A stretch of 64,000 nt of DNA from Candidatus Thorarchaeota archaeon (GTDB lineage: Archaea > Asgardarchaeota > Thorarchaeia > Thorarchaeales > Thorarchaeaceae). A model generated the notes under the pieces. That model was not told the DNA's origin, ran no database searches, and saw only the letters and a program-made list of their open reading frames with translations. The position numbers and the translations under genes were made by a program. The DNA lies in the NCBI GenBank assembly GCA_048884785.1, contig JBHLQM010000010.1:1-64000 (forward strand), in the 5' to 3' direction. This document shows positions 15,582 through 31,391 of the stretch, in pieces. The stretch's first letter is position 1, and every line of letters starts with the position of its first letter.

Positions 15582-16574
15582 TCACACCCACTGCTCAAGA
15601 GTTGTTTGCTCCTTTCCAAAATCCTTCCATAATTTCAAAATATGATTTGACTGCCTTTCTGCGTTCTCTTGGCCTATAATAGGTTCCAATAGGTGAATCA
15701 GTTTCGGAACCAAAGGAGGATTCAGATTGGTGATTACTCCATTTAATGAAATATAATTTGCTTCTTCAAACATAGATCTTGCATTGACATAGCCTTCAAT
15801 TTCAGATTTTGAATATCCCTTTGAGCGAAGTAGGCCAACTAAACCACCATATCTCTGAAGAAGTACCACTCCTTTACGAGGGCCGACACCTTTGACTCCA
15901 TCTCTATGAAAATCACACCCACAGATAATTGCCAAATCCCGAAGATAATCCAAGGGCAGATCAACTGATTCCTGGAGATCCTTGAGCGTACATCTCTCAA
16001 TCAATCCGTTACCAAACTGAATGGTTCGAGTAACATGAGGACTTCCGAAGAGAAGAGCATCTAAATCATTTGAAAGAACTGTACCTACTAGACTCTCTCG
16101 ACACATAACCGCCGCCATCATTTCTGCTTCAGATGGCGCAGTGACCTGCGGAACGCCGATTGCATTGCATAGATCCTTGAGATAGTTCACCGCGAAGTAC
16201 CATCGAAGCGCTCTACTCTCCACCAACTGTTCTGCAATTCTAGCGTCATTGATATTGTGGGACTCTGAGAATTGATGATACAATAGGGAAGCTGCTTGAA
16301 GTAAGGAAGGATTTGAGGGTCTCTTCAAATTCTCCGGAGGACCATCGAAAACGAATACTGGTAGTATCTTCATGGCAAGGCTGGATCGAATAGTACTAAA
16401 TGCAAGAGAGATTTGAGCGGTAGGAATTCTCTCAATACTCAGCTTTGCCTGATACTCGAATGCCTGTACTCTTCTTGTCAGGTAATTAGGCGCATCTATT
16501 GCCATGCTACGAGGCCGAAATTCATCATATGGTACCCATCGCCACGGTACGAAATCCCAATTTTTCACACCCAC
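15582..16574 (-). CDS. FEN1/XPG-family 5' structure-specific nuclease with C-terminal PIP box
   Basis: MGVK start (GTG 16574), IDA, PVFVFDG, APSEAE, SNDLDALLFG, CGCDF, H2TH GVKGVGPRKG, C-terminal QTTLEQWV. Confidence 0.9.
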   Translation of the reverse strand: MGVKNWDFVPWRWVPYDEFRPRSMAIDAPNYLTRRVQAFEYQAKLSIERIPTAQISLAFSTIRSSLAMKILPVFVFDGPPENLKRPSNPSLLQAASLLYHQFSESHNINDARIAEQLVESRALRWYFAVNYLKDLCNAIGVPQVTAPSEAEMMAAVMCRESLVGTVLSNDLDALLFGSPHVTRTIQFGNGLIERCTLKDLQESVDLPLDYLRDLAIICGCDFHRDGVKGVGPRKGVVLLQRYGGLVGLLRSKGYSKSEIEGYVNARSMFEEANYISLNGVITNLNPPLVPKLIHLLEPIIGQENAERQSNHILKLWKDFGKEQTTLEQWV

Positions 16575-16586
16575 TAGTGTCACAAC

Positions 16587-17318
16587 CTAGGCTGCCTTCA
16601 AAGAACGAATTCCCCTGTGTCCTAGCCGTACAATAACACCACCGGGATTAGGTATGATAGGTGTCCTCTCCACACATACCTTGACACCCTCATTAATTTC
16701 ACTAAGGGTACTTACACCTATTACCGTATCAACAGCATGTTCAATCACATTCCCCCCAATAGGGCGTGATTCACCTGTTAACCAATTACGAGCTGAATGG
16801 TCAGTCAGCATCATATGTATATTAGTATCAAGCACTACGCCTCTAACGACTTCCAGAGTCCTAAAGAGTTCTCTCTGGCGTTCCTTCGTTCCAGGGGGCC
16901 TACTCATGTTTAGCACGCTAGTTAGACTATCTAGCACAATCACTGCAATACTATCGATCCCTTGGCTTTGGACCACCAAATCTTCAACATCCGTTAGGTT
17001 GAACACAGATCCAATCTTGATTCTATGAAGGCTTTGATTCGAGTCGGTGCCGCACAGAACTCGTCCAAGCTGTGGGCTGAAATTTGATCCAGAATCGAGA
17101 TAGATAGCGTTTCTGTTTGCCATAGCGGCACCGATGACAACTGAATGTGCAATTGCAGTAAGCGGAAAGCGTTCTTCTCCATGAACGACGCTCATCTGAC
17201 CTGGAAGTATGATGCGTCCAATGATATTATCAAGAACTCTGGGTTTCAATTTAAATAAGGGAGCTGAGCTCACTTCGATTTCGTCTAGACTCTTTGATTC
17301 AATTGGCAGCCTGCTCAC
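16587..17318 (-). CDS. Rad51/RadB-like RecA-fold paralog with degenerate Walker A
   Basis: YLDSGSNFSP, VIVLDSLT, ERQRELF and RPIGGNVIEH motifs; the Walker A position reads HGEERFPLT (no GKT). Confidence 0.75.
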   Translation of the reverse strand: MSRLPIESKSLDEIEVSSAPLFKLKPRVLDNIIGRIILPGQMSVVHGEERFPLTAIAHSVVIGAAMANRNAIYLDSGSNFSPQLGRVLCGTDSNQSLHRIKIGSVFNLTDVEDLVVQSQGIDSIAVIVLDSLTSVLNMSRPPGTKERQRELFRTLEVVRGVVLDTNIHMMLTDHSARNWLTGESRPIGGNVIEHAVDTVIGVSTLSEINEGVKVCVERTPIIPNPGGVIVRLGHRGIRSLKAA

Positions 17319-18279
17319 CCCCTGCTTGAGACAGCATTAATGAAATAGTTCCAAGGTCACGTCCCAATATGATGCGTTCGAGGAATTCTGAGGGAATGTC
17401 TTTTGCCTCAATACCCGGAACACTTTCACGTCTAGTAACTGCACGTAATCCATCCGGATGAGGAAATATCATCAAACGCTCTGGTTGCTGTTTAAGCAGA
17501 ACTTCAACTGATTTCTCATTAACCGCCAAAACATAGTCAGACATTTCCAGACCATCATGAACATCGAGAAGAGGCATTAATAGGACAGCCTTCCTCAATA
17601 AAGGTGAAGTCTGTTCAATCTCACTTACACCTGCATCAGCCAAGACCTTTTTGACTTGCTGGCTCAATCCGATGCCTCCCTTCTCTCTTATTATTAATAC
17701 ATCGATGAATTCGAAGTGTGAGAGGATAGCTGGTAGTAGAGGCCTGTCGCGTAATACGGAAACTACTTTGCCAAAAGAACCTCTTGGCAACAGAAGGACA
17801 TCCAGCTTCTGACGTGTTATAAATGCCCACATAGCCAAGTCGTAATCTAGACCAGTTCGAAGCCCATTACTCCTGAAGGCAACAGCCAAATCCGCTGCAA
17901 GGTGCAAGCGTTCTTTGAGCTCAGTTGGATCTCTAACAATCATGCAGCCAAGAACCGAAAAGCCCGCACCCGCCAGTGAGATTAAGAGTCCGTAGGGAAG
18001 AAGTCCGACTAATAGTACGAAGAAAAGATACACCACCGTGCCCCATGCTGTCACATCTAAGAGAGTTTCAATGATAGGAGACTTTGGATTATAGAGTGAC
18101 ACAACTCGCTGCATTACCAGTGTGACTCCCACCACTGCAAGGAAAGGCATTACATTACCCAATCGCATGCTTACAACAACCCAGCTGACAGAGCCTAGGA
18201 TTTGTGATGCCATTATTATAGCCACACCGGCGATTATCCCATAGCTAAATAGACGAAAGAATGTCCCTCTGAACATCAT
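17299..18279 (-). CDS. Membrane protein (4 N-terminal TMs plus soluble domain)
   Basis: Hydrophobic first ~115 aa; overlaps both neighbours. Confidence 0.7.
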   Translation of the reverse strand: MMFRGTFFRLFSYGIIAGVAIIMASQILGSVSWVVVSMRLGNVMPFLAVVGVTLVMQRVVSLYNPKSPIIETLLDVTAWGTVVYLFFVLLVGLLPYGLLISLAGAGFSVLGCMIVRDPTELKERLHLAADLAVAFRSNGLRTGLDYDLAMWAFITRQKLDVLLLPRGSFGKVVSVLRDRPLLPAILSHFEFIDVLIIREKGGIGLSQQVKKVLADAGVSEIEQTSPLLRKAVLLMPLLDVHDGLEMSDYVLAVNEKSVEVLLKQQPERLMIFPHPDGLRAVTRRESVPGIEAKDIPSEFLERIILGRDLGTISLMLSQAGGEQAAN

Positions 18280-18950
18280 GAAGCCTCCATTGATACCCTT
18301 GATATACTGAATGATACCCCACCTGATGAAGAAAGGTGAAGATTGCCAATATGCTCACGGGGTGACCCATCTGCACTTGCAGTATAGATTTGGGAGACCT
18401 GACTTCCAGATCTTCTTTCCAGTATTAGATTAATATCTGCCCAGGAATCCAGCTTCTCATGATATACCGCCCGAACACCCATCTCTGATTCTCTGGTTTC
18501 GCTAATGAGCAAAATGCATAGATTCTTGGTCATACATAATCCGGCTAGAGTAGGCAGAGCTTCTTCAAACAATGACTGACCCCAAAGTATCTTTTCCTTG
18601 CGTGACATATCTAAAACTCTTGTAATCGAATCTATCACTACCATTCCGGTATTATTCCGGAGTCTACGGGCTGTGTCCAATATCGCGGATTTTGTTTCAG
18701 ATGCATTGGCTACTTGAGTGATAGTTAGATTAGATTCTATTCCTCCGTAGTACGCCATATTGTTTTTCAGATGTACAAGGAAACCAATCTTACCATCTGT
18801 AGAGAGCCAGTCAATGTGACGAGTCCTTGACCTGGAAGAAGCCAATGCAGCGGCAAATAGAGTCTTCCCTGACCCAGGACTTCCGGCAACGTGTATTATG
18901 CCGTTTGTATTGGCAAGTGTAGCAATATATTCATCAGTCAGATGTAGCAT
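18276..18950 (-). CDS. Rad51/RadB-like RecA-fold ATPase (core only)
   Basis: Walker A GSPGSGKT, Walker B VVIDSI, LLISE, ADINLILER. ORF extends to 19007; likely ATG 18950. Confidence 0.75.
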   Translation of the reverse strand: MLHLTDEYIATLANTNGIIHVAGSPGSGKTLFAAALASSRSRTRHIDWLSTDGKIGFLVHLKNNMAYYGGIESNLTITQVANASETKSAILDTARRLRNNTGMVVIDSITRVLDMSRKEKILWGQSLFEEALPTLAGLCMTKNLCILLISETRESEMGVRAVYHEKLDSWADINLILERRSGSQVSQIYTASADGSPREHIGNLHLSSSGGVSFSISRVSMEAS

Positions 18951-20583
18951 CCTCCTCAACTTGCCTGTGCTTTGAGAGAGCTTCAGTGCTGGAGTGTGAT
19001 TCAGCAATGCTGGCTAGTACATCCAACGCAGTAGGTTCCACATCGCCCTTCCTGGAATCACCTCGAACGATCTCAGATAGCTCATCCAATTGATTGGCAA
19101 CTGAGATAGTGTCATCCTCAACGCCATCGTACTCTTCAGTTGGGCGGGTTTTCGCCTCTATCTCTGGGATTTCATCTAACACATGTTCTGCGTCAGCAGT
19201 CGAGATTTCTTGGACAAGCCAATCATCTTCCTCTGGATCGTTCTGGATTTCGCCGGCGGGATGCTCACTTATCTCTCTATCAAGAAATTTGAGGTTCTCC
19301 TTCATTGCTCTGGAATTCATCAGATCATCTATCCGATCCTTTACAGAAGGTCTTAGAATTCCTGAATTGTATAGGGTGTCTGTAAGCATAGTTGAGTGCT
19401 TCAGAATTTCATCTTCAGTTAATGGCGATAATATGTGATTGCTAAAAGCGACGTAAGAGATGGCTAGTTCAGATTCGTCCAATTCAGTTCCAAGTGAGTT
19501 GAAGAGTCCTGCAAATTTGGATAGACCATCATCACCCAAGGATTCCACTCTACTTGTAGAATGTCGAACGCATTCATCTAAAACAAGACACGCGGCACTC
19601 ACTGCGCTGTCATAATCGCCTACAGAAATTGAACCGGCAACAGATGCCATGAGAGGCGAAACTACAAAACTCAGATCCTGCTGTGTGCGTAGTTTTTCCT
19701 TGTTTATCTCAATGCTTTGGTTAATTCTATGCCCATCCCCGACTTTGTTAACCTTGATGGTTTCTGTTTGAATAATATCCAGGAATTCATCTAGCCTCCT
19801 CCGAGAACTAAAGAGCAACCATGCTCCAGCCGCAATTCCAAGTATGCTAGCTCCAATTGGCAATACCATGGAACCCTCACCTTGAAACAAAACACCAAGA
19901 ATAGAAACCGCTCCAATAATGGATAGCATGGTGGCAAGAATCCCAAACCACGCCTGTTTCATGCTCTCATCAAGAATATCCCATTTTTCACGTATGACAC
20001 GATTCTGCATCTCCGAGAGAGAAGCCCTCATATCACTGCGCCGTGCCAAGAGAAAATCATCAGCATTTAAAATCCGGCTTGATTCGGTTAGCCAAGTCAA
20101 ATCAACACCGGGGCGAGTTTCACTCACAATGACATAGACAGTTTTGGTTAGATGAATAAGAGAGCCCTTATGATTAGGTCCTGCTCGCAGCATTTGCAGA
20201 CTGATTCGTCCTTTGCTTGTGAGTTTAGTGACTTCTTTGACACTGTCATCCAAATGAACGTCTTTGAGAGCAGACACAATGGTGCGATTGAGAGTTTCTA
20301 GGACGGCTGCTTGCATAGCAATAGTTGCCTTGCCAAATGATGCTCGTCTCAGATCAAGTACATATGCCAAATCCAAATGTACTCCTCTTCTATCGGGGAT
20401 TCCCTCCGTTAGAACACCTAAGACAATGCCATTAGGATACGTTGAAATCCTATGACCAGTTGCACTTAGAGCCCTGACTATGTCGTAGTCTTCTGTACCG
20501 CCAATAGTGGCGGTGCCTTCTCTTTCCAAAGTGTCTTCGTTTTTCTCAACCGTGGAGGTTTCATCAGTTATTACCATCATCAT
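18934..20583 (-). CDS. Membrane protein with two central TM helices and acidic C-terminal tail
   Basis: Two TM segments (WFGILATML...; MVLPIGASIL...), helical C-terminal half; start overlaps the helicase stop. Confidence 0.7.
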   Translation of the reverse strand: MMMVITDETSTVEKNEDTLEREGTATIGGTEDYDIVRALSATGHRISTYPNGIVLGVLTEGIPDRRGVHLDLAYVLDLRRASFGKATIAMQAAVLETLNRTIVSALKDVHLDDSVKEVTKLTSKGRISLQMLRAGPNHKGSLIHLTKTVYVIVSETRPGVDLTWLTESSRILNADDFLLARRSDMRASLSEMQNRVIREKWDILDESMKQAWFGILATMLSIIGAVSILGVLFQGEGSMVLPIGASILGIAAGAWLLFSSRRRLDEFLDIIQTETIKVNKVGDGHRINQSIEINKEKLRTQQDLSFVVSPLMASVAGSISVGDYDSAVSAACLVLDECVRHSTSRVESLGDDGLSKFAGLFNSLGTELDESELAISYVAFSNHILSPLTEDEILKHSTMLTDTLYNSGILRPSVKDRIDDLMNSRAMKENLKFLDREISEHPAGEIQNDPEEDDWLVQEISTADAEHVLDEIPEIEAKTRPTEEYDGVEDDTISVANQLDELSEIVRGDSRKGDVEPTALDVLASIAESHSSTEALSKHRQVEEDATSD

Positions 20584-22759
20584 CACCTGCAAAACGTGTA
20601 TCTAATTCCTCCCAGAGGGATTGCGCCTGGCCAGCCACAAAAGACAGGTTTCCCTCTCTGGCAATTGCAGCAATTGCACTCAACAGCCAACGGGCCTTCT
20701 CCAATAGAGATAGCAGATCTCCTATGGGGAGTCCGAGCTGCTCCGCCATATCCTGTGTATGTATTCGTGTTGTGGCTGCCATTGCAACCATAAAGTCGAA
20801 TTGCTCATCTAAGGCCAAGTTGCCTTCTATCGACACAAGATGCCTTAGCAGAGAGAGTAATGTAGTTGTATCATCAACAAAAGGAATCATTGCAAGTAGC
20901 TCCCTTGCTGTTCGAATGCGAAGGTATAGCCTGCTTACTAATCGCCCCAACCGGGTGACACGAACCTTGCCACCATCTGCCCCTTCAATGAATGCAAGTC
21001 GCCTAAGAACCCCTGACGGACTTGACTCGCTGAGTGACAGTGGTATGACATGATCTGCGTAGATCTTATGCTCAGTAATTGCGGCTATCCCAAGGATGAC
21101 TAAGTGCGAACACAAGACCCCATTTTCATCAAGAGGTCTTCCGCAGGAGCACATTGGACCCTCAATAGCACCGCTTCTCTGGCTCCTCGAGGAAAAGCGG
21201 CAAGTAGCATTATCCCCACCCTTTTGGGTCACAATGCCTCCTATTACAGAATCGTGTGCCTCTCTGATACGAACTGTTCCAAGGACGCCTGCTCTAGCGG
21301 CTCTTAGTGAATCTGATAATGAATGCTTCTCAAGTACTGAAATTGCATCTATGTCCCCGAGATGAACGAGTCTCATCGGTGATCCTGAATTTCTAACTGC
21401 CTGGTGAATAAGAAAGGTATCAGCCAGAAATCCATCTTCAATATCCTGAAGACTTGCTTCACCAAGTAAATCTAGAGCAACTAGGAGCTGTTCCTGCACA
21501 GATTCGGAATCCGAAAGAGCACTCCTTAGGATTTCGTACCTCGGTTCAAGAATCTCCCGACCTGTTGACTCATCATGGTGTGTATAGAAGCATCTTTGTT
21601 TTATCTCGATTGCCTGCCCTTTATTATCTGCTACAATGATTCCAAATCCCTTTGCATCAAGTCCAGGTCGACCTGCTCGCCCCAACATTTGATGTATTTG
21701 ATTTGATGATAGAAGTTCCTTATAATCTACAGGAGATCTAGGGTTCGCAATGATAACACTTCGAGCTGGGAGGTTCATCCCTGATGAAAGCGTAGTTGTT
21801 GCACATATCACTCTAATTTGCCCCTGTCTGAAAAGCCCTTCAATCAACCGTCTGGCAGATATTCCAAGACCTGCATGGTGGTATGCAATTCCTTCGTGAA
21901 GTACCTCTCTCAAATCCTTGGGGAGCGCAACCCCCCAATGTTCCACTGATGATAACTCAGATTGAAGGAATGCCCTCTCATTTGAAGTCAGTTGCTTTCC
22001 GACATGCGGAGCCAGCCTTTTTGCTTCAGCTTCTGCCTCTCTTCTAGTTCTCTGAAATACAATGACTTGTCCATTTTTCTGCACTGTAGTCATGGTATAG
22101 AGCTGCACTGCCTCATCGCGATGAACCTTGGGAACAACTGAGCAGATCAGAGGTATCGGTCTCTCAGAAGATTCTATTAGTTCGCAACCTAGCCATTCAC
22201 TTAGCTGTTCAGGCATTCCGATTGTAGCTGAAAGAGCAACAATCTGCAAATTTTCAACAATCTTGCGAAGACGTATAATGACTGATTCAAGTCGCGCACC
22301 CCTGACGGGTTCTGAGATGGACTGCACCTCATCTATTACAATGGTTCCAATCTCTTCAATCCATTTTACTCGGTGACGAAGAAGAGAGTCTGTCCTTTCA
22401 TAGGTAGTAACGAGTATATCATATTCAGAGAGGTCTTCACTTTCCGAAAAACAGTCACCAGTACTCAGTCCTACTCGAATATTCTTTGGCTCATACCTGC
22501 TCTTTAGGACTTCATAGATTTGACTGGCTAAGGCACGTAATGGGACAATGTATAGCCCTCTCTTTCCTGCAGAGATTGACCTTAGAAGGGCCATCTCTCC
22601 GATGAGTGTTTTTCCGGAACCTGTTGGGCTGGAGATAAGAATACTCTGCCCCTCCAGGAGACCTTTGTCCACAGCGTCTCTTTGAATACCTCTGGGTTGC
22701 AATCCAATGTGATCAAGAATCTTATGCACCCGAGCAGAAATATCCATATAGCTTGTCAT
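20564..22759 (-). CDS. Ski2-like/Hel308-type SF2 helicase with inserted SWIM zinc finger
   Basis: SPTGSGKT, VPLRALA, DEVQ, SAT, HHAGL, GMNLPA, QMLGRAGR; CSC-x10-CSH SWIM motif precedes TRLGRLVSRLYL. Confidence 0.88.
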   Translation of the reverse strand: MTSYMDISARVHKILDHIGLQPRGIQRDAVDKGLLEGQSILISSPTGSGKTLIGEMALLRSISAGKRGLYIVPLRALASQIYEVLKSRYEPKNIRVGLSTGDCFSESEDLSEYDILVTTYERTDSLLRHRVKWIEEIGTIVIDEVQSISEPVRGARLESVIIRLRKIVENLQIVALSATIGMPEQLSEWLGCELIESSERPIPLICSVVPKVHRDEAVQLYTMTTVQKNGQVIVFQRTRREAEAEAKRLAPHVGKQLTSNERAFLQSELSSVEHWGVALPKDLREVLHEGIAYHHAGLGISARRLIEGLFRQGQIRVICATTTLSSGMNLPARSVIIANPRSPVDYKELLSSNQIHQMLGRAGRPGLDAKGFGIIVADNKGQAIEIKQRCFYTHHDESTGREILEPRYEILRSALSDSESVQEQLLVALDLLGEASLQDIEDGFLADTFLIHQAVRNSGSPMRLVHLGDIDAISVLEKHSLSDSLRAARAGVLGTVRIREAHDSVIGGIVTQKGGDNATCRFSSRSQRSGAIEGPMCSCGRPLDENGVLCSHLVILGIAAITEHKIYADHVIPLSLSESSPSGVLRRLAFIEGADGGKVRVTRLGRLVSRLYLRIRTARELLAMIPFVDDTTTLLSLLRHLVSIEGNLALDEQFDFMVAMAATTRIHTQDMAEQLGLPIGDLLSLLEKARWLLSAIAAIAREGNLSFVAGQAQSLWEELDTRFAGDDDGNN

Positions 22760-25071
22760 TTTCCTGCACTCACCTCTCGATCTTTCTGTCTGAGAGCCAT
22801 AGTACCTTTCATGGTTAGGCGGTAATTCTTGTATGAAACACCACTATGTTGTTCGTGACCTTCAAGTATGAAACTAGCGTCCTTCAGACGGATTAGAATA
22901 CCTTCAACATCACCTTCTCCGCCACTAGCCGATATGAATCGTCTGACAGCTTCCTCTGTCAATGGCTCATACCTCTCTAGAAGTCTGAGAACTCTTAGGT
23001 TCAAATCAGAGGCTTCAGTACCATCATTGGTTGAAGGTATAGCCTGTTCCTTTTGAGAAGAAATACGAGAAATTCGCGACCTGCTCTCTTCAGGAGATAT
23101 TGGTCTTAGCTCTGGTACATCCGCCAATCGGAATGGTTGAGCAGTTTCCAGTTCATTATGAACAAGCAATGCAACGCCATCCTCCATTGTCCGAAGAAAA
23201 GAGGATTCTCGGGCCGACCATCGCGCTTTGCTATGTAATCCAGTACCTATTACGCTCAGAGCAAGTCGTGATGATACTACGGCGATATCTTTCTCATCCC
23301 TCAGTCTGAATGATATGCAGGAGCTCAATAGATTCTTGACTCCTGATGATAGCATATGAGGCTGGTCGATGCTTATAATAACGGAACTCACTTTGGAGAG
23401 ATTGCGAATAAGAGAATCAGTCCAAAGTGCCCTGCGTGAATACTCTGTATTTGATGTTCTAAGATTATCAGGATCATCAATGATAATTACTAAATCCCTG
23501 TCAGGTTTGCGTCCGGCTAGTTTCATGAGCATAAGATCAAAGGCAAAGAAGTCAAGCGGTGCAGAACCCAAGGACATAGAAACCACGCAAATTGGTATCG
23601 ACCCCAATTTTTCGACTGAAACGGTTTGGGTTCCATAGAAAGCTCTTGCTCCAGATCCTTGGTGTAATCTCCTTAGAGCTTCAATACCAAGTAGTGATGC
23701 CTTGCTCGTGGAATTTAATTGAACAGCTGAGTCCGTCGCCTGGAGATCGGCATCATTCTCAATCCTCACATCTGCAACTGTTCGGTTTCCCAACGCAACG
23801 GCTCTTCCTAGGGCGAGTTCAAAGTCGGCTGCACTCGTGAGCGATGCGCCACTCAGACTTTCCAACGCTCTCATTAGCTGTGGAACAAATTCAGTTCGCG
23901 GGACATTATCGGAGTCGACAGGATTCAGAACCAGGTCCTTGCCCAAAGTCATTCCTATTGCGCCATCATGAAGACTTGCTAATTGAAGTGCATCATGGTG
24001 TGAGCTGAGTACAAGAACGCGCTTTCCTGAACTAAGTAGTCGTGCTGAAAGAAGCGATAGCAAATCCAGTCGATTTTGCCAACTTCCCCCGCAAACAAGA
24101 ACACCATCAGATATATCTTGAAACGATAGTCCGGTAATTGGGCCTTCTTGGAGGGTGTCAGGATTCAAGACCTTTCCGAGAGGTAGGTCACTTTCTCTGG
24201 TTCGGATGTTTATTACGAATTGCCCAGGGACATTAGTTCCAACCTCTGACGACAATTCAGACCTTAATTGAACTAGCCATTCGGATAGCTCAACTCCGGT
24301 AGCGAAGTACAATGGCAAACCGTGTCCGCCTTTCATGCTAGCGAGCTTCTCATGCAAACGAGCTGCGTCGATGCGCTTCCATCCTTTTGCAGGAATCGCT
24401 CCACGGACTGCAGATTCATGAAAGCGAACATCATTGGCATCTCTTACTAATCCAATAATAGAAACATTAACGCCCCATAGACCGGAGCGATACTCCATAT
24501 AGGTATGCAACTCGTCTCCGGAAAGTCCTTTGAGATATGTTTCAATCGAGGATGCAAGGTTGCGATTCTCTAAAATCCTTCCCGGATTCATTGATTCCAT
24601 CGATACTGTGAGAGTGAAACCATCAGAAGTTGGCAGAGCTCTGACAAGAGAAGCAATAGTACCTTGAAGCTTTGCTCCTGCGCTCCTCAATTCTAGCCCT
24701 GTAGCAGAATACGGAATTTCACCAAGTCGTCGCAAATGACTATTGTCTCCAACGAGCGAAGGAAAGATGTAGAGCTGTTCCTTCCATGCACTCTGTGGAT
24801 TGACATATTCGTGATTTGATAGATATCTTGGAATAAGCCAAAGCATTACAGACAGGAGAATGGTCAAAGCAATTACAGCGATAGGAAATGAAAGGACTGC
24901 AATGAAAGAGAGAATAACTATGGCAATAGACGATGTCCACGAATCTCGAATCTCTCTACTTGTCCATCGAACTTCACTGCTACTCGCTGGCTTTAAAGTG
25001 GATTCCTTCATCTCAGAGAGTGGATCTTGAGGAGGCTGGGAGCCCATTACAAACCCTTTACCCTTAGCCAA
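22756..25071 (-). CDS. Membrane-anchored HerA/FtsK/VirB4-like protein with degenerate ATPase motifs and C-terminal winged helix
   Basis: N-terminal TMs; VLVCGGSWQNR (Walker A site), GKRVLVL, LGKDLVLNP, LVIIIDDPDNL (Walker B site), DQPHMLS...SFRL, LRTMEDGVALL, YRLTMKG. ORF extends to 25158; likely start TTG 25071 or ATG 25047. Confidence 0.65.
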   Translation of the reverse strand: MAKGKGFVMGSQPPQDPLSEMKESTLKPASSSEVRWTSREIRDSWTSSIAIVILSFIAVLSFPIAVIALTILLSVMLWLIPRYLSNHEYVNPQSAWKEQLYIFPSLVGDNSHLRRLGEIPYSATGLELRSAGAKLQGTIASLVRALPTSDGFTLTVSMESMNPGRILENRNLASSIETYLKGLSGDELHTYMEYRSGLWGVNVSIIGLVRDANDVRFHESAVRGAIPAKGWKRIDAARLHEKLASMKGGHGLPLYFATGVELSEWLVQLRSELSSEVGTNVPGQFVINIRTRESDLPLGKVLNPDTLQEGPITGLSFQDISDGVLVCGGSWQNRLDLLSLLSARLLSSGKRVLVLSSHHDALQLASLHDGAIGMTLGKDLVLNPVDSDNVPRTEFVPQLMRALESLSGASLTSAADFELALGRAVALGNRTVADVRIENDADLQATDSAVQLNSTSKASLLGIEALRRLHQGSGARAFYGTQTVSVEKLGSIPICVVSMSLGSAPLDFFAFDLMLMKLAGRKPDRDLVIIIDDPDNLRTSNTEYSRRALWTDSLIRNLSKVSSVIISIDQPHMLSSGVKNLLSSCISFRLRDEKDIAVVSSRLALSVIGTGLHSKARWSARESSFLRTMEDGVALLVHNELETAQPFRLADVPELRPISPEESRSRISRISSQKEQAIPSTNDGTEASDLNLRVLRLLERYEPLTEEAVRRFISASGGEGDVEGILIRLKDASFILEGHEQHSGVSYKNYRLTMKGTMALRQKDREVSAGK

Positions 25072-25351
25072 TGGAACCACCTTCTGCAATCTGATAATGC
25101 TGGGAGAGAGCCTGAAGCATTCTTCGGAATCTTTCAGAGTACTCTTCCTTGCCTTCAAAGAGGAGCATTCGACCTATGATAAGCACTTCAGGGAGATCTC
25201 CTGGAGGTGGATTTCCATGAGCCCATAGTTTTGGATACTCGGTCAATCGAGTCCAAACATATCCATGACCAATCTCGAGGTTGTTCATTAGTTCCTCTAT
25301 CTTCAGATTCCCAGGAATTGCGAGCATGGAAGTGCCACTAAGCCTTTGCAT
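25064..25351 (-). CDS. Hypothetical protein (95 aa), operon member
   Basis: Coupled to both neighbours with RBS-like GAGGT/GGTGG. Confidence 0.6.
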   Translation of the reverse strand: MQRLSGTSMLAIPGNLKIEELMNNLEIGHGYVWTRLTEYPKLWAHGNPPPGDLPEVLIIGRMLLFEGKEEYSERFRRMLQALSQHYQIAEGGSIG

Positions 25352-25937
25352 CGACCTCTATACCTCCTCTTCGAATAAGCTGAATATCAGGAACATCGGC
25401 TGTAGAAATGGGAGTGTGGGGATAGGCGGCCCGCATTGCACTCTCAAGGACGAACGCATCCTCAAGCACTTTGTCAGCCAAATCCTCAACTCTGTGAATC
25501 CCATTTGGTAGTCGAAGACTACGCCTTGATACAATGAATCCAACTCTAGTGACTGAGTTGCCCAAAGGTCTGCATAGCACAAATTCAAGCCTCCCTCCTG
25601 GTTCATTATCGTACCTGGTTGCCATTGCTGAGAACACCTTTTTCGCGGAGTGGCTCAGGTCGATTCCCAGGGGAACACTTCGAATAAGACGCAATGAACA
25701 AACCTCAACATTCCATCCTCTGATAATTCCCAAAACGCCCCGATTCCCATCCCAAAGAAGATTTGGAGTTTTGTCAATTCTTCTTACACTGAATAGCAGC
25801 AATAGAAGAGAAAGCATGCCGGCAATCGCAATTATGAGGTGATTCATATTCTGCTGAATTGATAGGCTCATGCCCCACGCAGCAGCGATAGCAGCCACCA
25901 AAATCCAATGCACGGATGAGGACTCCTTGGAAATCAT
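25338..25937 (-). CDS. Membrane protein (2 N-terminal TMs plus alpha/beta domain)
   Basis: Two hydrophobic helices; ATGA overlap with the upstream gene. Confidence 0.7.
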   Translation of the reverse strand: MISKESSSVHWILVAAIAAAWGMSLSIQQNMNHLIIAIAGMLSLLLLLFSVRRIDKTPNLLWDGNRGVLGIIRGWNVEVCSLRLIRSVPLGIDLSHSAKKVFSAMATRYDNEPGGRLEFVLCRPLGNSVTRVGFIVSRRSLRLPNGIHRVEDLADKVLEDAFVLESAMRAAYPHTPISTADVPDIQLIRRGGIEVDAKA

Positions 25938-26128
25938 ACGACCTCCCTCTCAAGAATACTTAGACATGGAGAGATATCTTCAACAGGCTCCGCATCGATG
26001 GCACACCAAACCGTAAATAGCATCCAAGAAATTGCTGAAACACCCAAAGCTGTTGCAGAAACTAGTAAACCAATTCCAACCGCGAGCCATGCTAGCATTG
26101 CAGCGAGAAATAGAGCTACAGTTTTCAT
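25934..26128 (-). CDS. Small 2-TM hydrophobic protein (64 aa)
   Basis: First 45 aa almost entirely hydrophobic; coupled by ATGA overlap. Confidence 0.6.
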   Translation of the reverse strand: MKTVALFLAAMLAWLAVGIGLLVSATALGVSAISWMLFTVWCAIDAEPVEDISPCLSILEREVV

Positions 26129-26135
26129 ATTCAGT

Positions 26136-28100
26136 TTAACCCACTCTCCTTAAATCAAGAAACATTGTGATTGCCTTCTTCATTTCCTCAACACTATGAT
26201 ATGGCCAAAGATCAGAAACGATGTCATCTCCAAAGATTGAGATATGTCGTTCAAATCTATGGTCAAGAAGTACGACCACTCCCCAGTCTTCTGGAGACCT
26301 TCGTAGGCGCCCAACAAGTTGAACCACTTTGCGGACAGAAGGAATAACTGAGGAATAATAATATCCAGAGCCTTCTCCAAAACGTCGCTCATACCAGTCC
26401 TGCAATGCCCTTTGATAGCTGGTAGGCGGACTGAATGGTATCCCCACTCCGATAATCAGATCTACAAGCGACTGACCATCAATGACCAAGTCTACTCCCT
26501 CACTGAATTTTCCGCCATAGACGAGGAATACAGCCTTTGGACCTTGGTGCACTTGGTCCTGCAAATCTTCTATCCTTGCATCTCGATTCTCGACGATTCT
26601 ATCTCTATATCCACAATCAATATTGTAGCTTAGAACCTGGTCCATCACATCATAACTTGGAAAAGCCACGAGAGCCGATTTCTCTGCAGGCATCGTGACA
26701 AGAGCAGCTTCAATGCGCTTGCTCAGGCCGCGCCATAGCTCAGGTCCTCTTACTGAATACTTCGTAGAAACTTCACGATCCAAAAGAACAAGTCGTGAGT
26801 TCCTTGGATATGGACTTCCCAAATCTTCTGTCAATGAGCCTCTGATACCCATAAGACTCGCATAGAGATTTGTAGGCCTGAACGTGCCAGACATAAGCAA
26901 AGCAGCTCTTGCACTGCGGAGGATTGGGGCAATCAGGCCTGCAGCATTTAAGGGGCGTATTCGGAGAATGCCATCGACCAAACGAACTTCACTTGCCCAA
27001 GAGGGATTGAGCTCAGCTGTGACATGCCAATCATCACTATCAGATGCTCGGAGTCCGGCGAATAGAAAATCAACCAATCTATCCAAAGGTGTTTCCGTTG
27101 GAACAGATTCATCACCATCAAGGATTCGTGTCTGGTCCATAAGAACGTGAATGAGTTCAGGATCTACAAACCTAGGAAGGATTTGCCATCGGTCAATCTC
27201 GAGTTCACCCTTTTTCCTTCCAATTTTGTCAAGCGAAACCATCAAGGATTCCCAGAGGAAATCTATCACTTCGGAAATCCAGGATACCCCTGTTTCCTTC
27301 TTGACAGATGCCTTATTGTCCCTGAGCCACTGCAAATCCTCCCCGCTGAGACTAGCCGCCTCGGAAGAAAGAACATGTTCTGGAAGATTGTGCGCCTCAT
27401 CAACCAGTAGATCTGCATCCAAGAGACTATAACTCAAACTGGACAGAAGGGCGTTTCGAACACGTTCCTTGAAGAAGTAGGAATAAGGTCCAATTATGAC
27501 TCTGCTTTGTCTTGCTGACCATCTGAGAACTTCGTAGGGGCAAACACCTGACTCCTCAGCACTATGCTCAGCTGTTTCTCGAGCAACAACACCAGAAGAA
27601 AGCAATTCATTAACTAGTGATCTGGCGGGCTCACGTATCACTGGTGTCCCTTCATCTCCTTGACGTCTGTAGAATTGCCAATAGTGAGTGCACCGCCCAG
27701 TTCTGATCATCATGGCGCAACCGCGCATGAAACCCATTGCTGAATCAGTATCCATCTCGTGACGTATAGGGCAGATGTGCTTTCTAGAAACCATACTTGT
27801 AGTCGTGATTTGGTTTCCATGCCCAAGCGCATTTCTACGAAGTAGTTCAAGTTCTTCTTCAAAAACTCTTGACTGTGAGTGAGTTCTGGTAAGAATAAAC
27901 AGTCTCGAAGTAGAATCATCCGCTCTTACCGCCAAATATCCTGCTAGAGAGGCAATTGTTTTGCCGACACCGCATTCAGCAGATAGCATACCCACTATTC
28001 CCCGCGCATATGTTTCAGCGGCTATTGTTACGGCCCTATCCTGTTGTGGACGTGGCGTGTAGGGGAACCATGCAAGTGGATTCGCTATGCTTTCTCCCAA
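26136..28100 (-). CDS. XPD/Rad3/DinG-family 4Fe-4S SF2 DNA helicase
   Basis: FPYTPRPQQ Q-motif, AECGVGKT, TRTHSQ, four FeS Cys (HICP, GC, RC, CPYE), DEAHNL, SGT, GGKFSEGVD, QLVGRLRR. Confidence 0.92.
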   Translation of the reverse strand: MGESIANPLAWFPYTPRPQQDRAVTIAAETYARGIVGMLSAECGVGKTIASLAGYLAVRADDSTSRLFILTRTHSQSRVFEEELELLRRNALGHGNQITTTSMVSRKHICPIRHEMDTDSAMGFMRGCAMMIRTGRCTHYWQFYRRQGDEGTPVIREPARSLVNELLSSGVVARETAEHSAEESGVCPYEVLRWSARQSRVIIGPYSYFFKERVRNALLSSLSYSLLDADLLVDEAHNLPEHVLSSEAASLSGEDLQWLRDNKASVKKETGVSWISEVIDFLWESLMVSLDKIGRKKGELEIDRWQILPRFVDPELIHVLMDQTRILDGDESVPTETPLDRLVDFLFAGLRASDSDDWHVTAELNPSWASEVRLVDGILRIRPLNAAGLIAPILRSARAALLMSGTFRPTNLYASLMGIRGSLTEDLGSPYPRNSRLVLLDREVSTKYSVRGPELWRGLSKRIEAALVTMPAEKSALVAFPSYDVMDQVLSYNIDCGYRDRIVENRDARIEDLQDQVHQGPKAVFLVYGGKFSEGVDLVIDGQSLVDLIIGVGIPFSPPTSYQRALQDWYERRFGEGSGYYYSSVIPSVRKVVQLVGRLRRSPEDWGVVVLLDHRFERHISIFGDDIVSDLWPYHSVEEMKKAITMFLDLRRVG

Positions 28101-28702
28101 TTCGTTTCCTCCACCTGCAACATCGACTCTGCTGTGTGTATTCTAAATCTGATTGAGAAGTACCGATACATTAGGTCATGGAATCTCTGCACATTAGCTG
28201 AGGAGTCAAAGCCCTTTGTGTTCGAAGCCATTCTCTCGACAATCTCGGGACTGAATCCACGTTTCATAGCTATTGACCAAAAAGTCGCTTCGACCTCTTT
28301 TGCGGTACTCAACACAAAATCGCAGATGTTCTCCACCAATTCTCGTAGAAATCTGACAGCCTCTCGCGGCAACGCTGGTATCTGGGAGGCATAAGTCGAT
28401 GTAGGGACATAGAGTTGAAGACCTTCATCGCTATCCAAGTATACCTTACTTGGAACACCTCGCGTACCTCTCATGGTCTCCAGGAAAGATAGTATCCTTG
28501 GGAGCTGTGGGAGTATCGGTTTCTCCAAATCCCTCCAGTCTATTGACATGAGTACGAATAGTTCAGGATCTGGTTCTATTTCTGCCATCCTTATTACAGT
28601 GATTCGAGTTGGGGTATGACGCATGATTAGATTCACGAGTGCAATTGAATTCCGATTTGGCACGCCATGAGGAATTTGCATATGCGAGGCACTTGTTGTC
28701 AT
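28085..28702 (-). CDS. Hypothetical protein, operon member
   Basis: 205-aa ORF overlapping both neighbours. Confidence 0.7.
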   Translation of the reverse strand: MTTSASHMQIPHGVPNRNSIALVNLIMRHTPTRITVIRMAEIEPDPELFVLMSIDWRDLEKPILPQLPRILSFLETMRGTRGVPSKVYLDSDEGLQLYVPTSTYASQIPALPREAVRFLRELVENICDFVLSTAKEVEATFWSIAMKRGFSPEIVERMASNTKGFDSSANVQRFHDLMYRYFSIRFRIHTAESMLQVEETNWEKA

Positions 28703-29145
28703 CCCAATGAACCTCCCTCAATAATGAATAGATTACCAGAATGCTCAACCAACGCACCTTCACGTTTCAGAACATCCACAAAATGGCGGGCTCGTTCTAA
28801 GTCAATTCCAGCTTCTGAACATTCGCGAAGTACTTCCGTGTAGGAGGCAGGCTGCCCCCTATTGATTTCAATTAGTGCCTCAATTATATTCAACACGCGC
28901 TTCTTTAAACCCAAGCCACGTGAAGCCCCTGTCTTTCTTTCATCCAATCTGGAAGTCAATACGAGATCCGTGAGTATGTCCTTTGCTTCATCAATAGTAG
29001 CAGCGTACAGAGTACCTTTTTCATGGAGAATTAGTCCATTACATAGGCTGCATCGGGCGTCATCCTCTTCGTTGTTTACTGCAGCAAAGCCAGAGTTTCT
29101 GCATCTTCTGCATTGATAGATTCTGAACATACCCCGGGCTTTCAA
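28699..29145 (-). CDS. Zn-ribbon plus C-terminal winged-helix protein (DUF1922/DUF5817-like)
   Basis: CRRC...CSLC; the C-terminus VLNIIEAL...AGIDLERARHFVDVLKREG resembles the MCM C-terminal winged helix. Confidence 0.6.
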   Translation of the reverse strand: MKARGMFRIYQCRRCRNSGFAAVNNEEDDARCSLCNGLILHEKGTLYAATIDEAKDILTDLVLTSRLDERKTGASRGLGLKKRVLNIIEALIEINRGQPASYTEVLRECSEAGIDLERARHFVDVLKREGALVEHSGNLFIIEGGSLG

Positions 29146-30218
29146 ACAGCTTCAACCTCCACTTCTTCGGAATCATCATCAGAACCCTCTTCGACGTCAA
29201 CTTTGGCTTCACCAAATCCAGGTCTACCTGATTTCTCAAGGACTTCAAGAACTCGAGAGCCAACATCTTTCTTCTCCTTTGCATCCTCATAGAAGCCGCC
29301 CCAACCAATTTTCAGCGACACGTCAAACTCTGGCACGCCAGCATTATCTTGAAGGGTAATTCGTCTCTCGTCATCCTTGATTCGTCTCACATAGAATCTG
29401 TAGTCGCTGGCATGACTCAGTACATGACCTCCAACAGGTGCATTTGGATTTCCGCCATAGGAGGAAATATTGGCCATCACCTGGTTTGTATAGGCAAATA
29501 CAGTGCCTGTCGCAGCTGCCGTTCGCCGCATCTGATTCAGGATATTGTTCATATCCTGCTGCCTTAGTTTCAATTGTTCAAGCCCAGTATATTCTGCTCT
29601 AAAGAGACCTGTGAAAGAATCAAGTACAACAAATTTGTAGTTCTGCTCTGCACACATCTGCGGAATGCTTTCAAAAATCTCGGTGATTTGGCCTGAGAGA
29701 ATGATCTCTGCCCTTCCGATATTCCCCAAAGTAACATCAGGATCCAACCCGAAACGGATGGCATTTGCCCGTATTACCCACGGTTTGAATGAAGACTCAC
29801 TGTCAAGCCAAAGAACTCTGCCTCCAAAGCCGCCCTCCTCTACAGGAAGTTGAGCTCTCACCGCAAGAAATGAACACCATTGCGTTTTACCTCCTCTGGC
29901 AGGACCATAGAACTCTATAATAGAGCCCTCCTCAATCCCACCGAGAAGCGCCTCATCAAGTTTGGAGATGCCACTCTTCAAACGAGGTTTGGTCTCCATC
30001 TCATGCTCCACATCAAGTCCGGATTTAAAGCCGAACATCCCTGTGAGCATCCGCGCATTCTTAATCAACTTGGAAATTGTACCTTCTCCAAGCTTGGTCT
30101 TTTCCTGAAGCTCAACTGGATTCTGAACTGCAAGCAGCTCTGCTGTTGTGACGAAGACCTCTCTGAGCTTCTTTGCTGCTGCAGGTCCTACACCACTTAC
30201 TGCCTCAAGATCAGTCAA
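29142..30218 (-). CDS. radA: Divergent full-length RadA/Rad51-family recombinase
   Basis: HhH N-terminal domain (GVGPAAAKKL), GFKSG linker, LDEALLGGIE, GPARGGKTQ, VVLDSFTGLFRAEY, RQQ, TNQV, PVGGHVLSHA. Probably a paralog of the housekeeping radA. Confidence 0.88.
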   Translation of the reverse strand: MTDLEAVSGVGPAAAKKLREVFVTTAELLAVQNPVELQEKTKLGEGTISKLIKNARMLTGMFGFKSGLDVEHEMETKPRLKSGISKLDEALLGGIEEGSIIEFYGPARGGKTQWCSFLAVRAQLPVEEGGFGGRVLWLDSESSFKPWVIRANAIRFGLDPDVTLGNIGRAEIILSGQITEIFESIPQMCAEQNYKFVVLDSFTGLFRAEYTGLEQLKLRQQDMNNILNQMRRTAAATGTVFAYTNQVMANISSYGGNPNAPVGGHVLSHASDYRFYVRRIKDDERRITLQDNAGVPEFDVSLKIGWGGFYEDAKEKKDVGSRVLEVLEKSGRPGFGEAKVDVEEGSDDDSEEVEVEAV

Positions 30219-30669
30219 CTTTGAGAACCTCCTTCACCTGAGTTTCCACGGGGCCCCTAAGGGGAACCAACCGCATGAATCTGGATATCTCAGAAGGAGG
30301 AATCACAATCATTCCGCCAAGGAACACTGTCCGTACTCCAGCCAATTGCAGCTGTACAGCTGATGCATCTGGCGATGAGATTGGAAACAGTATACCCTGT
30401 TCAGTCACTCTCCCTGTGATGCTGATATACCCGCCAAGAGAGTCAAGAACAGAACCGTCTTCTGGAGTCTGTCCAGGCGCAATTGGTGTGATATCCAACA
30501 GCATGTCCGCAGTGTCCAAGACATCTGATAGGAACGGAGCCCAGAGATATTCTGGCTCCCAATACCTAGGCAGCCCAAGTCCAGCAATTGCTCCTGCCAA
30601 CCATGTGGTATCAGTAATGTCAGACACAACAGGGAGTATCCGTCCATTCAGGTCAATAGTGTAACTCAT
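30211..30669 (-). CDS. Hypothetical protein, operon member
   Basis: 152 aa; ATGA overlap upstream, carries the RBS for the radA-like gene. Confidence 0.7.
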   Translation of the reverse strand: MSYTIDLNGRILPVVSDITDTTWLAGAIAGLGLPRYWEPEYLWAPFLSDVLDTADMLLDITPIAPGQTPEDGSVLDSLGGYISITGRVTEQGILFPISSPDASAVQLQLAGVRTVFLGGMIVIPPSEISRFMRLVPLRGPVETQVKEVLKVD

Positions 30670-31391
30670 ACTACTTCCTCCTGTGCTATAATATTGAATG
30701 TTCCAACCACTTCATTCTGGGGTTGCATATCGTCGAGCCAGTTGAGAATTTCCTGAACGAGATGCTTCTCAAACTGCGTACGGCTCAGAACAGATTGCAA
30801 TAGCGCCTTTGATGCTAGCCGGACCCTATCGATAGCCCTTGAGCGTGTTTCGTAATCAAGCGGTCTATACCAATCCATGGTCACATAGCCACTCTCGCCA
30901 GCAAGAAACTCTCGCCAGTCAATATTGAATGGAAGGTCCTTCTCAAGTATGTTCAGAAGAACACGAGTCCATGTAGCCCATCGGTCCATGAATCTCCAGA
31001 TGTTTCTTCCCAGTTCCTCAATACTTGAGCCTTCGAAGATGAGAATGATACGTGTTGCGTCGTCACGTTCTATCGCCGATGCCGAAATCATCCGATTCTG
31101 CTGCTCAACAAGTAGTGCAATTGCTGGTATGAGTCCAGGAATGTCACATTGTCGATATGATCCATTTTGACCTTCTTTGTATCGAGGGAAGGGAGATAGA
31201 ATCTCACTTCGCAATCCTGCGATCACAACCATAGACCCATCCTGTTGAAGGGTTGCCCTGGCAATGTGACGATCACTACTCTCAAACATCATTTGCATGT
31301 ACAATGTCACGTCAATGTCGTGCTTGTCCTTAACACTCTCATATTGACGTGCCAAACCTGCCTCGAAGTTCCTGCATGACATCAAATTCAC
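30666..31391 (-). CDS. Hypothetical protein, first gene of the operon
   Basis: 241-aa ORF downstream of the TATA/repeat region. Confidence 0.7.
   Translation of the reverse strand: MNLMSCRNFEAGLARQYESVKDKHDIDVTLYMQMMFESSDRHIARATLQQDGSMVVIAGLRSEILSPFPRYKEGQNGSYRQCDIPGLIPAIALLVEQQNRMISASAIERDDATRIILIFEGSSIEELGRNIWRFMDRWATWTRVLLNILEKDLPFNIDWREFLAGESGYVTMDWYRPLDYETRSRAIDRVRLASKALLQSVLSRTQFEKHLVQEILNWLDDMQPQNEVVGTFNIIAQEEVV

Follow-up and report, generated by a model that had tools for sequence, protein, structure and literature searches.

A second full-length Rad51/RadA-family paralogue within a conserved DNA-processing operon of Candidatus Thorarchaeota

The first 64,000 nucleotides of contig JBHLQM010000010.1 of a Candidatus Thorarchaeota archaeon (assembly GCA_048884785.1) were analysed, and this whole 64-kb stretch is called the window below. 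An open reading frame (ORF) on its reverse strand encodes a Rad51/RadA-family protein, here named RadA2 (protein P0001), and the coordinates of the gene, its motifs and its neighbours are collected in Table 1. A GGAGG box resembling a Shine-Dalgarno sequence lies 9 nucleotides 5' of the TTG start codon, the start overlaps the stop of an upstream gene encoding a 152-residue protein (TTGACTGA), and the stop overlaps the start of a downstream gene encoding a 148-residue protein (TTGA). A preliminary description of this DNA, made from the letters alone, had read the ORF as a full-length Rad51/RadA paralogue, and this reading was borne out, with all the motif strings it quoted found at their positions in the 358-residue product. 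With 286 homologues and an AlphaFold model that superposes on RAD51 protomers, the ORF is not a product of chance.

RadA2 matches the Pfam family Rad51 (PF08423) over residues 80-308 with 179.3 bits (1e-52; cut-off 22), while its match to Pfam HHH_5 (26.6 bits) falls 0.4 bits under the cut-off of 27. The scores for the named subfamilies all remained under their cut-offs, namely the two NCBIfam RadA models (NF003301, 244.4 bits against 259; TIGR02236, 223.6 against 361.15), the RAD51 equivalog (TIGR02239, 186.9 against 478), the DMC1 equivalog (TIGR02238, 179.9 against 448) and two RadB models (TIGR02237, 70.4 against 172.4; the other, 48.5 against 278). RadA2 is a member of the Rad51/RadA superfamily that lies below the threshold of every named subfamily tried. 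Its best sequence match in the PDB was 1PZN, the Pyrococcus furiosus Rad51/RadA (183 bits).

Table 1. Features of the RadA2 locus, with positions counted in the window
Feature	Position	Strand	Remarks
RadA2, full-length Rad51/RadA-family paralogue, 358 aa	29142..30218	(-)	TTG start; stop codon included
N-terminal helix-hairpin-helix domain, residues 1-60	30039..30218	(-)	HHH_5, 26.6 bits; model alignment from about residue 1 of full-length RAD51
Polymerisation motif GFKSG (F64-x-S66-G67), FxxA variant	30018..30032	(-)	
Walker A GPARGGKT, intact GxxxxGKT	29883..29906	(-)	K111 and T112 invariant (100%)
LDSESSFKPWVI with catalytic Glu141	29772..29807	(-)	E141 in 117/117; arginine of the canonical 'PER' replaced
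Walker B FVVLDS	29616..29633	(-)	D200 invariant, 117/117
L1 loop FRAEYTGLEQLKLRQ	29559..29603	(-)	Equivalent of human R235 is Leu213; equivalent of R241, R219, retained
L2 loop TNQVMANISSYGGNPNAPVGGHVLSH	29412..29489	(-)	Gap-free pairwise alignment with the genome's own RadA
C-terminal extension beyond the RecA fold, residues 311-358 (48 aa)	29145..29288	(-)	Lys-rich helix, then acidic helix/tail
Operon, co-directional and tightly packed, 14 ORFs of at least 110 aa, about 16 kb	15582-31391	(-)	
Two upstream genes of unknown family	241 aa, 30666-31391; 152 aa, 30211-30669	(-)	Translationally coupled to RadA2
Two downstream genes	28085..29145	(-)	148 aa, 28699-29145 (Zn-ribbon and winged-helix-like); 205 aa, 28085-28702; order conserved
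XPD/Rad3-like iron-sulphur helicase paralogue 'XPD2', 654 aa	26136..28100	(-)	Pfam DEAD_2 and Helicase_C_2
Rest of operon: 199 aa, 800 aa, Hel308-like DEAD helicase 731 aa, 552 aa, KaiC/RecA-like 243 aa, 326 aa, core-only Rad51 paralogue 243 aa, XPG/FEN-like nuclease 333 aa	15582..25937	(-)	

RadA2 is not the sole full-length copy in its genome, in keeping with the earlier proposal of a second recombinase. A Pfam Rad51 search across the assembly (3.6 Mb, 158 contigs, 91% complete) gave five loci, comprising RadA2 (180 bits), a canonical RadA of 340 residues on contig C5 (323 bits; L001:1495-2517, -) and three short core-only paralogues, one of them in the same window. The canonical RadA carries GSFRSGKTQ, TEGTFRPERL and YTGRGTLAARQQ, and RadA2 is 39% identical to it. 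In six related genomes (G003, G052, G023, G025, G026 and G011), RadA2 and the canonical RadA were found 33-78 kb apart on one contig; their co-occurrence is therefore not a binning artefact, and this explanation was ruled out. The canonical RadA on C5 also has a strongly acidic N-terminal extension of about 30 residues (MDEDFDYEDFDDPEKEDEE...), and its Walker A motif is GSFRSGKT instead of GEFGSGKT.

Residue statistics were determined for 117 core RadA2 members and compared with 71 canonical representatives and 17 eukaryotes. The helix-hairpin-helix domain, the FxxG-type linker, both Walker motifs and the L1 and L2 loops, described earlier as retained, were recovered by motif position, by residue conservation in the 117 members and in the model. 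In the N-terminal domain, positions G9, G11, P12, L18, E27 and L29 are conserved across the family. The polymerisation motif has Phe in 116, Ser in 113 and Gly in 116 of the 117 core members, while canonical RadA and eukaryotes mostly have F-x-T-A; Gly takes the Ala position in 20 of the 71 canonical representatives, and the genome's own RadA has F-E-T-A. R219 is present in all core members, as are H265 and H269 in the L2 region, where Q246 is found in 114 (97%).

The departures from canonical RadA that had been described, in Walker A (GPARGGKT), in LDSESSFKPWVI lacking the 'PER' arginine and in the L1 loop FRAEYTGLEQLKLRQ lacking the R235-equivalent arginine, were also confirmed, and L2 and the ATP-cap region were found to depart as well. 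The canonical R148 position holds Arg in 68 of 71 canonical representatives and V, I, T, H or N in the RadA2 family. Position 213, equivalent to human R235, is Leu in 99 core members, Ile in 18 and never Arg (n=117), while Arg occupies it in 61 of 71 canonical representatives and 15 of 17 eukaryotes. In L2, Ile251-Ser252 stands where the genome's own RadA has Pro-Asp (I251 97% and S252 78% in the family), and the ATP-cap region reads D-N-A-G-x-P-E-F in RadA2 and D-S-P-x-L-P-E in canonical RadA.

A salt bridge between R235 and D274 of neighbouring protomers is conserved in Rad51, and in Dmc1 the Asp is replaced and the bridge lost (10.1101/2025.02.19.639135). Judged from the aligned residues, this L1-L2 bridge is lost from both partners in RadA2 (Leu213, Ser252), unlike in DMC1, which keeps the Arg. 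Since Dmc1 likewise lacks the bridge, its loss does not bar RadA2 from superfamily membership. The first L2 position, Pro in 96% and Val in 0.2% of archaeal RadA (10.1101/2025.02.19.639135), is aliphatic in RadA2, where Rad51 has Val. In the literature searched, two-sided loss of the salt bridge together with an aliphatic first L2 residue was found described nowhere.

The AlphaFold2 model of RadA2, built from a 91-row alignment, had a mean predicted local distance difference test (pLDDT) score of 92.9 and a predicted template modelling (TM) score of 0.91. The top Foldseek matches were protomers of human and yeast RAD51 and Dmc1 in presynaptic, postsynaptic and displacement-loop filaments, with TM scores by target of 0.89-0.94 and root-mean-square deviations of 1.7-2.6 A over about 313 columns (RAD51 protomers, 0.91-0.94 and 1.7-2.1 A). 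Two extra helices are modelled outside the Rad51 fold, at residues 313-330 (pLDDT >90) and 335-351. They lie in the C-terminal extension, which has a median length of 48 residues in 111 family members, with a median net charge of -8 in its distal part. An acidic C-terminal tail had been noted before, and the extension does end in an acidic run. Bacterial RecA also has a negatively charged C-terminal tail after its ATPase core, and this tail restrains DNA binding. The RadA2 tail, predicted as two helices on a Rad51-type core, is not homologous to that of RecA, and a RecA-like role for it is a conjecture by analogy.

With the catalytic and polymerisation residues conserved in 117 members and the fold of a RAD51 filament protomer predicted, an active filament-forming enzyme is a reasonable reading. 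On sequence grounds, it is fairly probable that RadA2 is a functional second Rad51/RadA recombinase, restricted to Thorarchaeia, which acts beside the housekeeping RadA and serves an accessory repair or recombination operon.

The same residues bear on a different role, in which RadA2 would perform no strand exchange itself and would act as a mediator or regulator that caps, nucleates or remodels RadA filaments, in the manner of RAD51 paralogues, Rad55-Rad57 or RadB/aRadC. The DNA-contacting Arg of L1 is lost in all 117 core members and the 'PER' Arg is lost too, the protein scores under the RadA equivalog cut-offs, it evolves 4-5 times as fast as RadA, and the Foldseek list includes RAD51 from paralogue-capped filament complexes, which illustrate how a role of this kind is constructed, the matched chains being RAD51 itself. 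Unlike known mediators, however, RadA2 has the complete architecture, with its helix-hairpin-helix domain, the Phe for polymerisation, L2 at full length, R219 and every ATPase residue. The family-fixed F-x-S-G differs from the F-E-T-A of the host RadA, which would favour self-assembly over co-assembly, and the two core-only RecA-fold proteins of the operon fit a mediator role better. A mediator function of RadA2 is thus considered unlikely, though worth keeping in view.

The relationship of RadA2 to other recombinases was analysed with sequences from an exhaustive search of representatives, which gave 3,947 relatives; eukaryotic Rad51 and Dmc1-like sequences, verified with the NCBIfam RAD51 and DMC1 models, are among the top 150. 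Three trees were inferred: a FastTree of 121 rows, a quick IQ-TREE (LG+C20) of 104 rows and a careful IQ-TREE (LG+C20) of 68 rows with ultrafast bootstrap and the Shimodaira-Hasegawa-like approximate likelihood ratio test (SH-aLRT). In the careful tree, a branch with 100/98 support divides 41 canonical and eukaryotic rows from 27 RadA2-type rows. The eukaryotic clade falls on the canonical side, with the RadA of Thorarchaeia, of other Asgard families and of diverse representatives; the other side holds the RadA2 core clade (99/97) and more divergent paralogue groups that appear to be limited to Thorarchaeia. All three trees agree, and eukaryotes grouped with RadA2 in none of them. RadA2 therefore branches outside canonical RadA and eukaryotic Rad51/Dmc1, and the check by phylogeny that had been suggested beforehand comes out in favour of a separate paralogue.

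Approximately unbiased (AU) tests under LG+F+G4 with fast constrained searches, indicative only, did not reject the grouping of RadA2 with Thorarchaeia RadA (p = 0.069), with all sampled Asgard RadA (p = 0.063) or with eukaryotes (p = 0.146, delta log-likelihood 35.6). The last result leaves standing a tree in which RadA2 would be a true orthologue of Rad51 or Dmc1 from a pre-eukaryotic duplication, and RadA2 does have the salt-bridge loss in common with Dmc1 and the aliphatic first L2 residue with Rad51. This origin is nevertheless very improbable. The eukaryotic clade lies inside the canonical RadA group in the FastTree and in both IQ-TREE analyses, split off by the 100/98 branch; RadA2 scores far under the RAD51 (187 against 478 bits) and DMC1 (180 against 448 bits) cut-offs; it is 30-37% identical to eukaryotic representatives, while the genome's canonical RadA is 45-47% identical to them; and it lacks the salt-bridge Arg that Dmc1 retains. 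The family is also confined to Thorarchaeia, while the Asgard lineage placed nearest to eukaryotes is Heimdall (PMC12722695, 10.1101/2025.02.19.639135). RadA2 is not an orthologue of Rad51 or Dmc1 and represents an independent, Thorarchaeia-restricted lineage.

The point at which RadA2 attaches may reflect history or long-branch attraction. Since only one class has the family, the simplest account is that the gene was duplicated in the stem of Thorarchaeia and then evolved faster; RadA2 may also have been acquired from some unsampled source. Matsuo et al. 2025 described two RadA clades in Heimdall-, Gerd- and Njordarchaea and, less robustly, in Lokiarchaea, and placed the Rad51/Dmc1 split after the divergence of eukaryotes (PMC12722695). 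They sampled Thorarchaeia (AB_25, SMTZ-45), removed 'highly divergent' sequences and discussed no Thorarchaeia paralogue (PMC12722695). Their second clade resembles RadA2 as a duplicated full-length RadA of Asgard archaea; unlike the case of RadA2, Thorarchaeia are not named among the two-clade lineages, and orthology of RadA2 with this clade was ruled out by the search across the phylum and by the trees. In family f30 (G394, G395), the duplicated copies, unlike RadA2, are mutual sisters within the canonical group. A preprint sorting Asgard recombinases into 18 groups does not describe RadA2 among them (10.1101/2025.02.19.639135), and literature searches found no description of the RadA2 paralogue or of its operon.

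A word-indexed search gave the 286 homologues mentioned above, and the best 120 of these are 58-100% identical to RadA2, with almost all the named ones assigned to Candidatus Thorarchaeota. A pattern scan of species genomes gave 44 loci, labelled Thorarchaeota (including AB_25, SMTZ1-45 and OWC2/3/5) apart from a few labelled generically Promethearchaeota or Hermodarchaeota. Among 87 Thorarchaeia species genomes, RadA2 is present in 56 (match of at least 43% identity and 270 bits). Similarity to RadA2 in these genomes is bimodal, with canonical RadA forming a separate group at identities of 35-40% and scores of 170-220 bits. When 313 other Asgard genomes were searched with RadA2, the best match did not exceed 209 bits, the level of canonical RadA. 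Two closed genomes of a single contig each, G010 and G058, lack the gene, as do several metagenome-assembled genomes (MAGs) more than 90% complete. RadA2 is an accessory gene of a Thorarchaeia-restricted family.

For two genome pairs, canonical RadA showed 90.6% and 80.3% identity and RadA2 55.4% and 46.7%, with the rate of RadA2 being about 4-5 times that of canonical RadA. Between RadA2 and its closest orthologues (73-85% amino acid identity), nonsynonymous divergence (dN) was 0.12-0.22 and synonymous sites were saturated, indicating that RadA2 is fast-evolving yet clearly under purifying selection.

Further RadA-like genes were observed beside this family. Additional full-length paralogue groups occur in eight Thorarchaeia MAGs (G039, G042, G084, G085, G038, G020, G077 and G079) at 27-38% identity to RadA2; they cluster with RadA2, not with canonical RadA, and several lack the equivalent of the catalytic Glu, the Gln or Arg219 of L1. 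Three RadA2-type copies were found in G054, where a strain mixture is possible. In G073 (L060, C15:35700-38600) and G074 (L061, C7:19200-22100), a third full-length RadA-like gene with 32-33% identity and a very long branch stands in tandem with RadA2. A 45-kb contig of IMG/VR (IMGVR_UViG_3300021590_000001, L081:8001-8993) encodes a distant full-length RadA-like protein with 24% identity over residues 1-316. In JGI 3300009788 (Ga0114923_10000076, L037), a RadA2-type gene of 41% identity lies outside the operon, adjoining a gene for a 1591-residue protein of no known family, with IS605 OrfB/TnpB-like genes on the flanks.

RadA2 is the third gene of the operon, the order being 241 aa, 152 aa, RadA2, 148 aa, 205 aa, XPD-like, 199 aa, 800 aa, Hel308-like, 552 aa, KaiC/RecA-like (243 aa), 326 aa, core-only Rad51 paralogue (243 aa) and XPG/FEN-like nuclease. 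The six-gene order from the 241-aa gene to the XPD-like gene was kept in all 29 Thorarchaeia loci examined, the two upstream genes standing in the same order in 28-29 of the 29, and the longer operon was kept around RadA2 homologues of 73%, 47% and 44% identity. The genes of the distal part (199 aa to the nuclease) also follow the RadA2 homologue in L018, L038 and L039, and they are present in G010. The two upstream proteins had zero matches in Pfam, NCBIfam, PADLOC and PHROG. For the 152-aa protein an atlas search yielded nothing, and for the 148-aa protein it gave leads only, to a DUF1922/DUF5817 Zn-ribbon and an MCM-type/Crp-type winged helix.

The XPD-like helicase XPD2 was found in 57 of the 87 class genomes; both it and RadA2 are present in 51, neither in 25, and 11, mostly incomplete MAGs, are discordant. 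The same genome has a separate and better-scoring XPD on contig C49. XPD2 is 26-27% identical to the canonical XPD of related Thorarchaeia genomes and therefore did not arise by recent duplication of the housekeeping gene. It matched the PADLOC model 'type IV-A CRISPR-associated DinG' over its full length with 261 bits and NCBIfam Rad3 with 158 bits. The operon is a stable unit, and this fixed context supports a specialised role for RadA2, as the preliminary description had supposed.

RadA2 and its operon might, instead of serving cellular repair, be part of a mobile element or of a defence island directed against viruses or plasmids. The PADLOC matches of the two operon helicases (type IV-associated DinG, 261 bits; HamB helicase cores, about 140 bits), the patchy distribution, even inside genera, the fast evolution of RadA2, the multiple divergent copies in some MAGs (three in G054, several distant paralogues in G039 and G042) and the 41%-identical relative amid IS605/TnpB genes would fit such an origin. 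However, the helicase matches span generic SF2/XPD cores, and RadA2 and the operon proteins of unknown family had no match in PADLOC (PADLOC-DB 2.0), so that membership of RadA2 in a known defence system was rejected. The window contains zero tRNA genes, and no integrase was seen among the scanned operon genes and two flanking genes. The chromosomal position is stable, with RadA2 33-78 kb from canonical RadA in the six genomes mentioned above and a GH3 gene upstream in three distant genomes. IMG/VR held no close relative, a scan with the clade profile giving only the single RadA-like gene of 24% identity, and a virus-borne origin was likewise rejected. A mobile or defence function is accordingly held to be improbable.

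For a functional second recombinase, the following mechanism is proposed, and it is from sequence and model that we infer filament formation, activity, altered pairing, a function of the tail and the process served. RadA2 would bind ATP via its intact P-loop and polymerise head to tail through Phe64 of the GF[KR]SG linker, giving a Rad51-type helical filament on DNA; Glu141, with His269 acting in trans, is predicted to hydrolyse ATP. The surface that pairs DNA would be rebuilt, the salt-bridge L1 Arg and L2 Asp being replaced by Leu213 and Ser252 and the L2 Pro by Ile251; with these contacts rewritten, pairing and strand exchange (stringency, stability of intermediates) should differ from those of canonical RadA. 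The family-specific C-terminal helical extension with its acidic tail probably modulates DNA binding or the docking of partners. RadA2 would be produced from the translationally coupled operon, and it would most likely be the strand-pairing enzyme of a pathway that includes the divergent second XPD-, Hel308- and FEN1/XPG-type copies and the two core-only RecA-fold proteins of the operon.

Several observations weigh against a functional second recombinase. The lost L1 arginine contacts DNA in Rad51, and pairing by RadA2 could therefore be impaired and not retuned. About one third of Thorarchaeia species, including that of the closed genome G058, lack RadA2, which is consequently dispensable. 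Fast evolution, together with distant sister groups lacking E141, Q246 or R219, points to a lineage that tends to decay. Moreover, in the closed genome G010 (L080, C1:84000-102000) the operon runs from the 148-aa gene, which is shortened there to 111 aa, to the FEN-like gene, and RadA2 and the two upstream genes are lacking. It is a natural deletion variant of the operon, of use for finding out what RadA2 contributes, and the joint loss indicates that RadA2 and the two upstream genes are a separable sub-module.

Compared with canonical archaeal RadA (1PZN; Saccharolobus solfataricus RadA, 2BKE), RadA2 has the same architecture of helix-hairpin-helix domain, linker with polymerisation Phe and RecA-fold ATPase with L1 and L2, and its Walker A and B motifs, catalytic Glu, Gln and trans-acting His are the same in kind. 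It differs in its 39% identity and separate clade, in L1 (Leu for Arg), L2 (Ile-Ser for Pro-Asp), the polymerisation motif (FxSG for FxxA) and the ATP cap (D-N-A for D-S-P), in a C-terminus that is longer by about 48 residues and acidic at its end, and in being accessory, operon-bound and fast-evolving. RadB, aRadC/KaiC-like proteins and the eukaryotic RAD51 paralogues are RecA-fold companions of a main recombinase, and this genome has three short ones, two of them in the operon; unlike these core-only paralogues, RadA2 has an N-terminal domain, a polymerisation motif and full L1 and L2 loops.

The likeness to DMC1 beside RAD51 that had been drawn for this locus holds as an analogy, in that RadA and RadA2, like RAD51 and DMC1, are two full-length paralogues in one genome that differ chiefly in the L1 and L2 loops, RadA2 resembling DMC1 in lacking the L1-L2 salt bridge and RAD51 in its aliphatic first L2 residue. 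It does not hold as kinship, since RadA2 belongs to an independent Thorarchaeia-restricted duplication or lineage, has no link to meiosis and sits in an operon with helicases and a nuclease. RadA/RadA2 parallels the RAD51/DMC1 arrangement by analogy and not by homology, and the two-recombinase arrangement of Thorarchaeia appears to have arisen independently.

To understand the origin of meiosis, it is central to learn how and why one recombinase splits into a general and a specialised form. The Rad51/Dmc1 split has been placed after the departure of eukaryotes from the sampled Asgard archaea, and the functional difference has been traced to the L1 and L2 loops (PMC12722695, 10.1101/2025.02.19.639135). 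RadA2 offers a natural independent experiment within Asgard archaea, with exactly those contacts rewritten and conserved in dozens of species, and the RadA and RadA2 of Thorarchaeota are a tractable pair for the effect of salt-bridge loss on pairing stringency. It would be a long shot that RadA2, lacking the bridge as Dmc1 does, pairs DNA at lower stringency and, with the operon enzymes and membrane-associated proteins, serves recombination of non-identical DNA, such as DNA passed between cells or diverged chromosome copies, which would make it an archaeal functional analogue of a meiotic recombinase in an independent two-recombinase system, among the prokaryotes most closely related to eukaryotes. 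RadA2 also points to an uncharacterised DNA-processing operon of 14 genes (~16 kb).

On contig C49 (~16384-19547), the other, canonical-type XPD lies about 2 kb from a short RadB/KaiC-like Rad51 paralogue (L004), so that the pairing of an XPD with a RecA-fold protein occurs twice in this genome.

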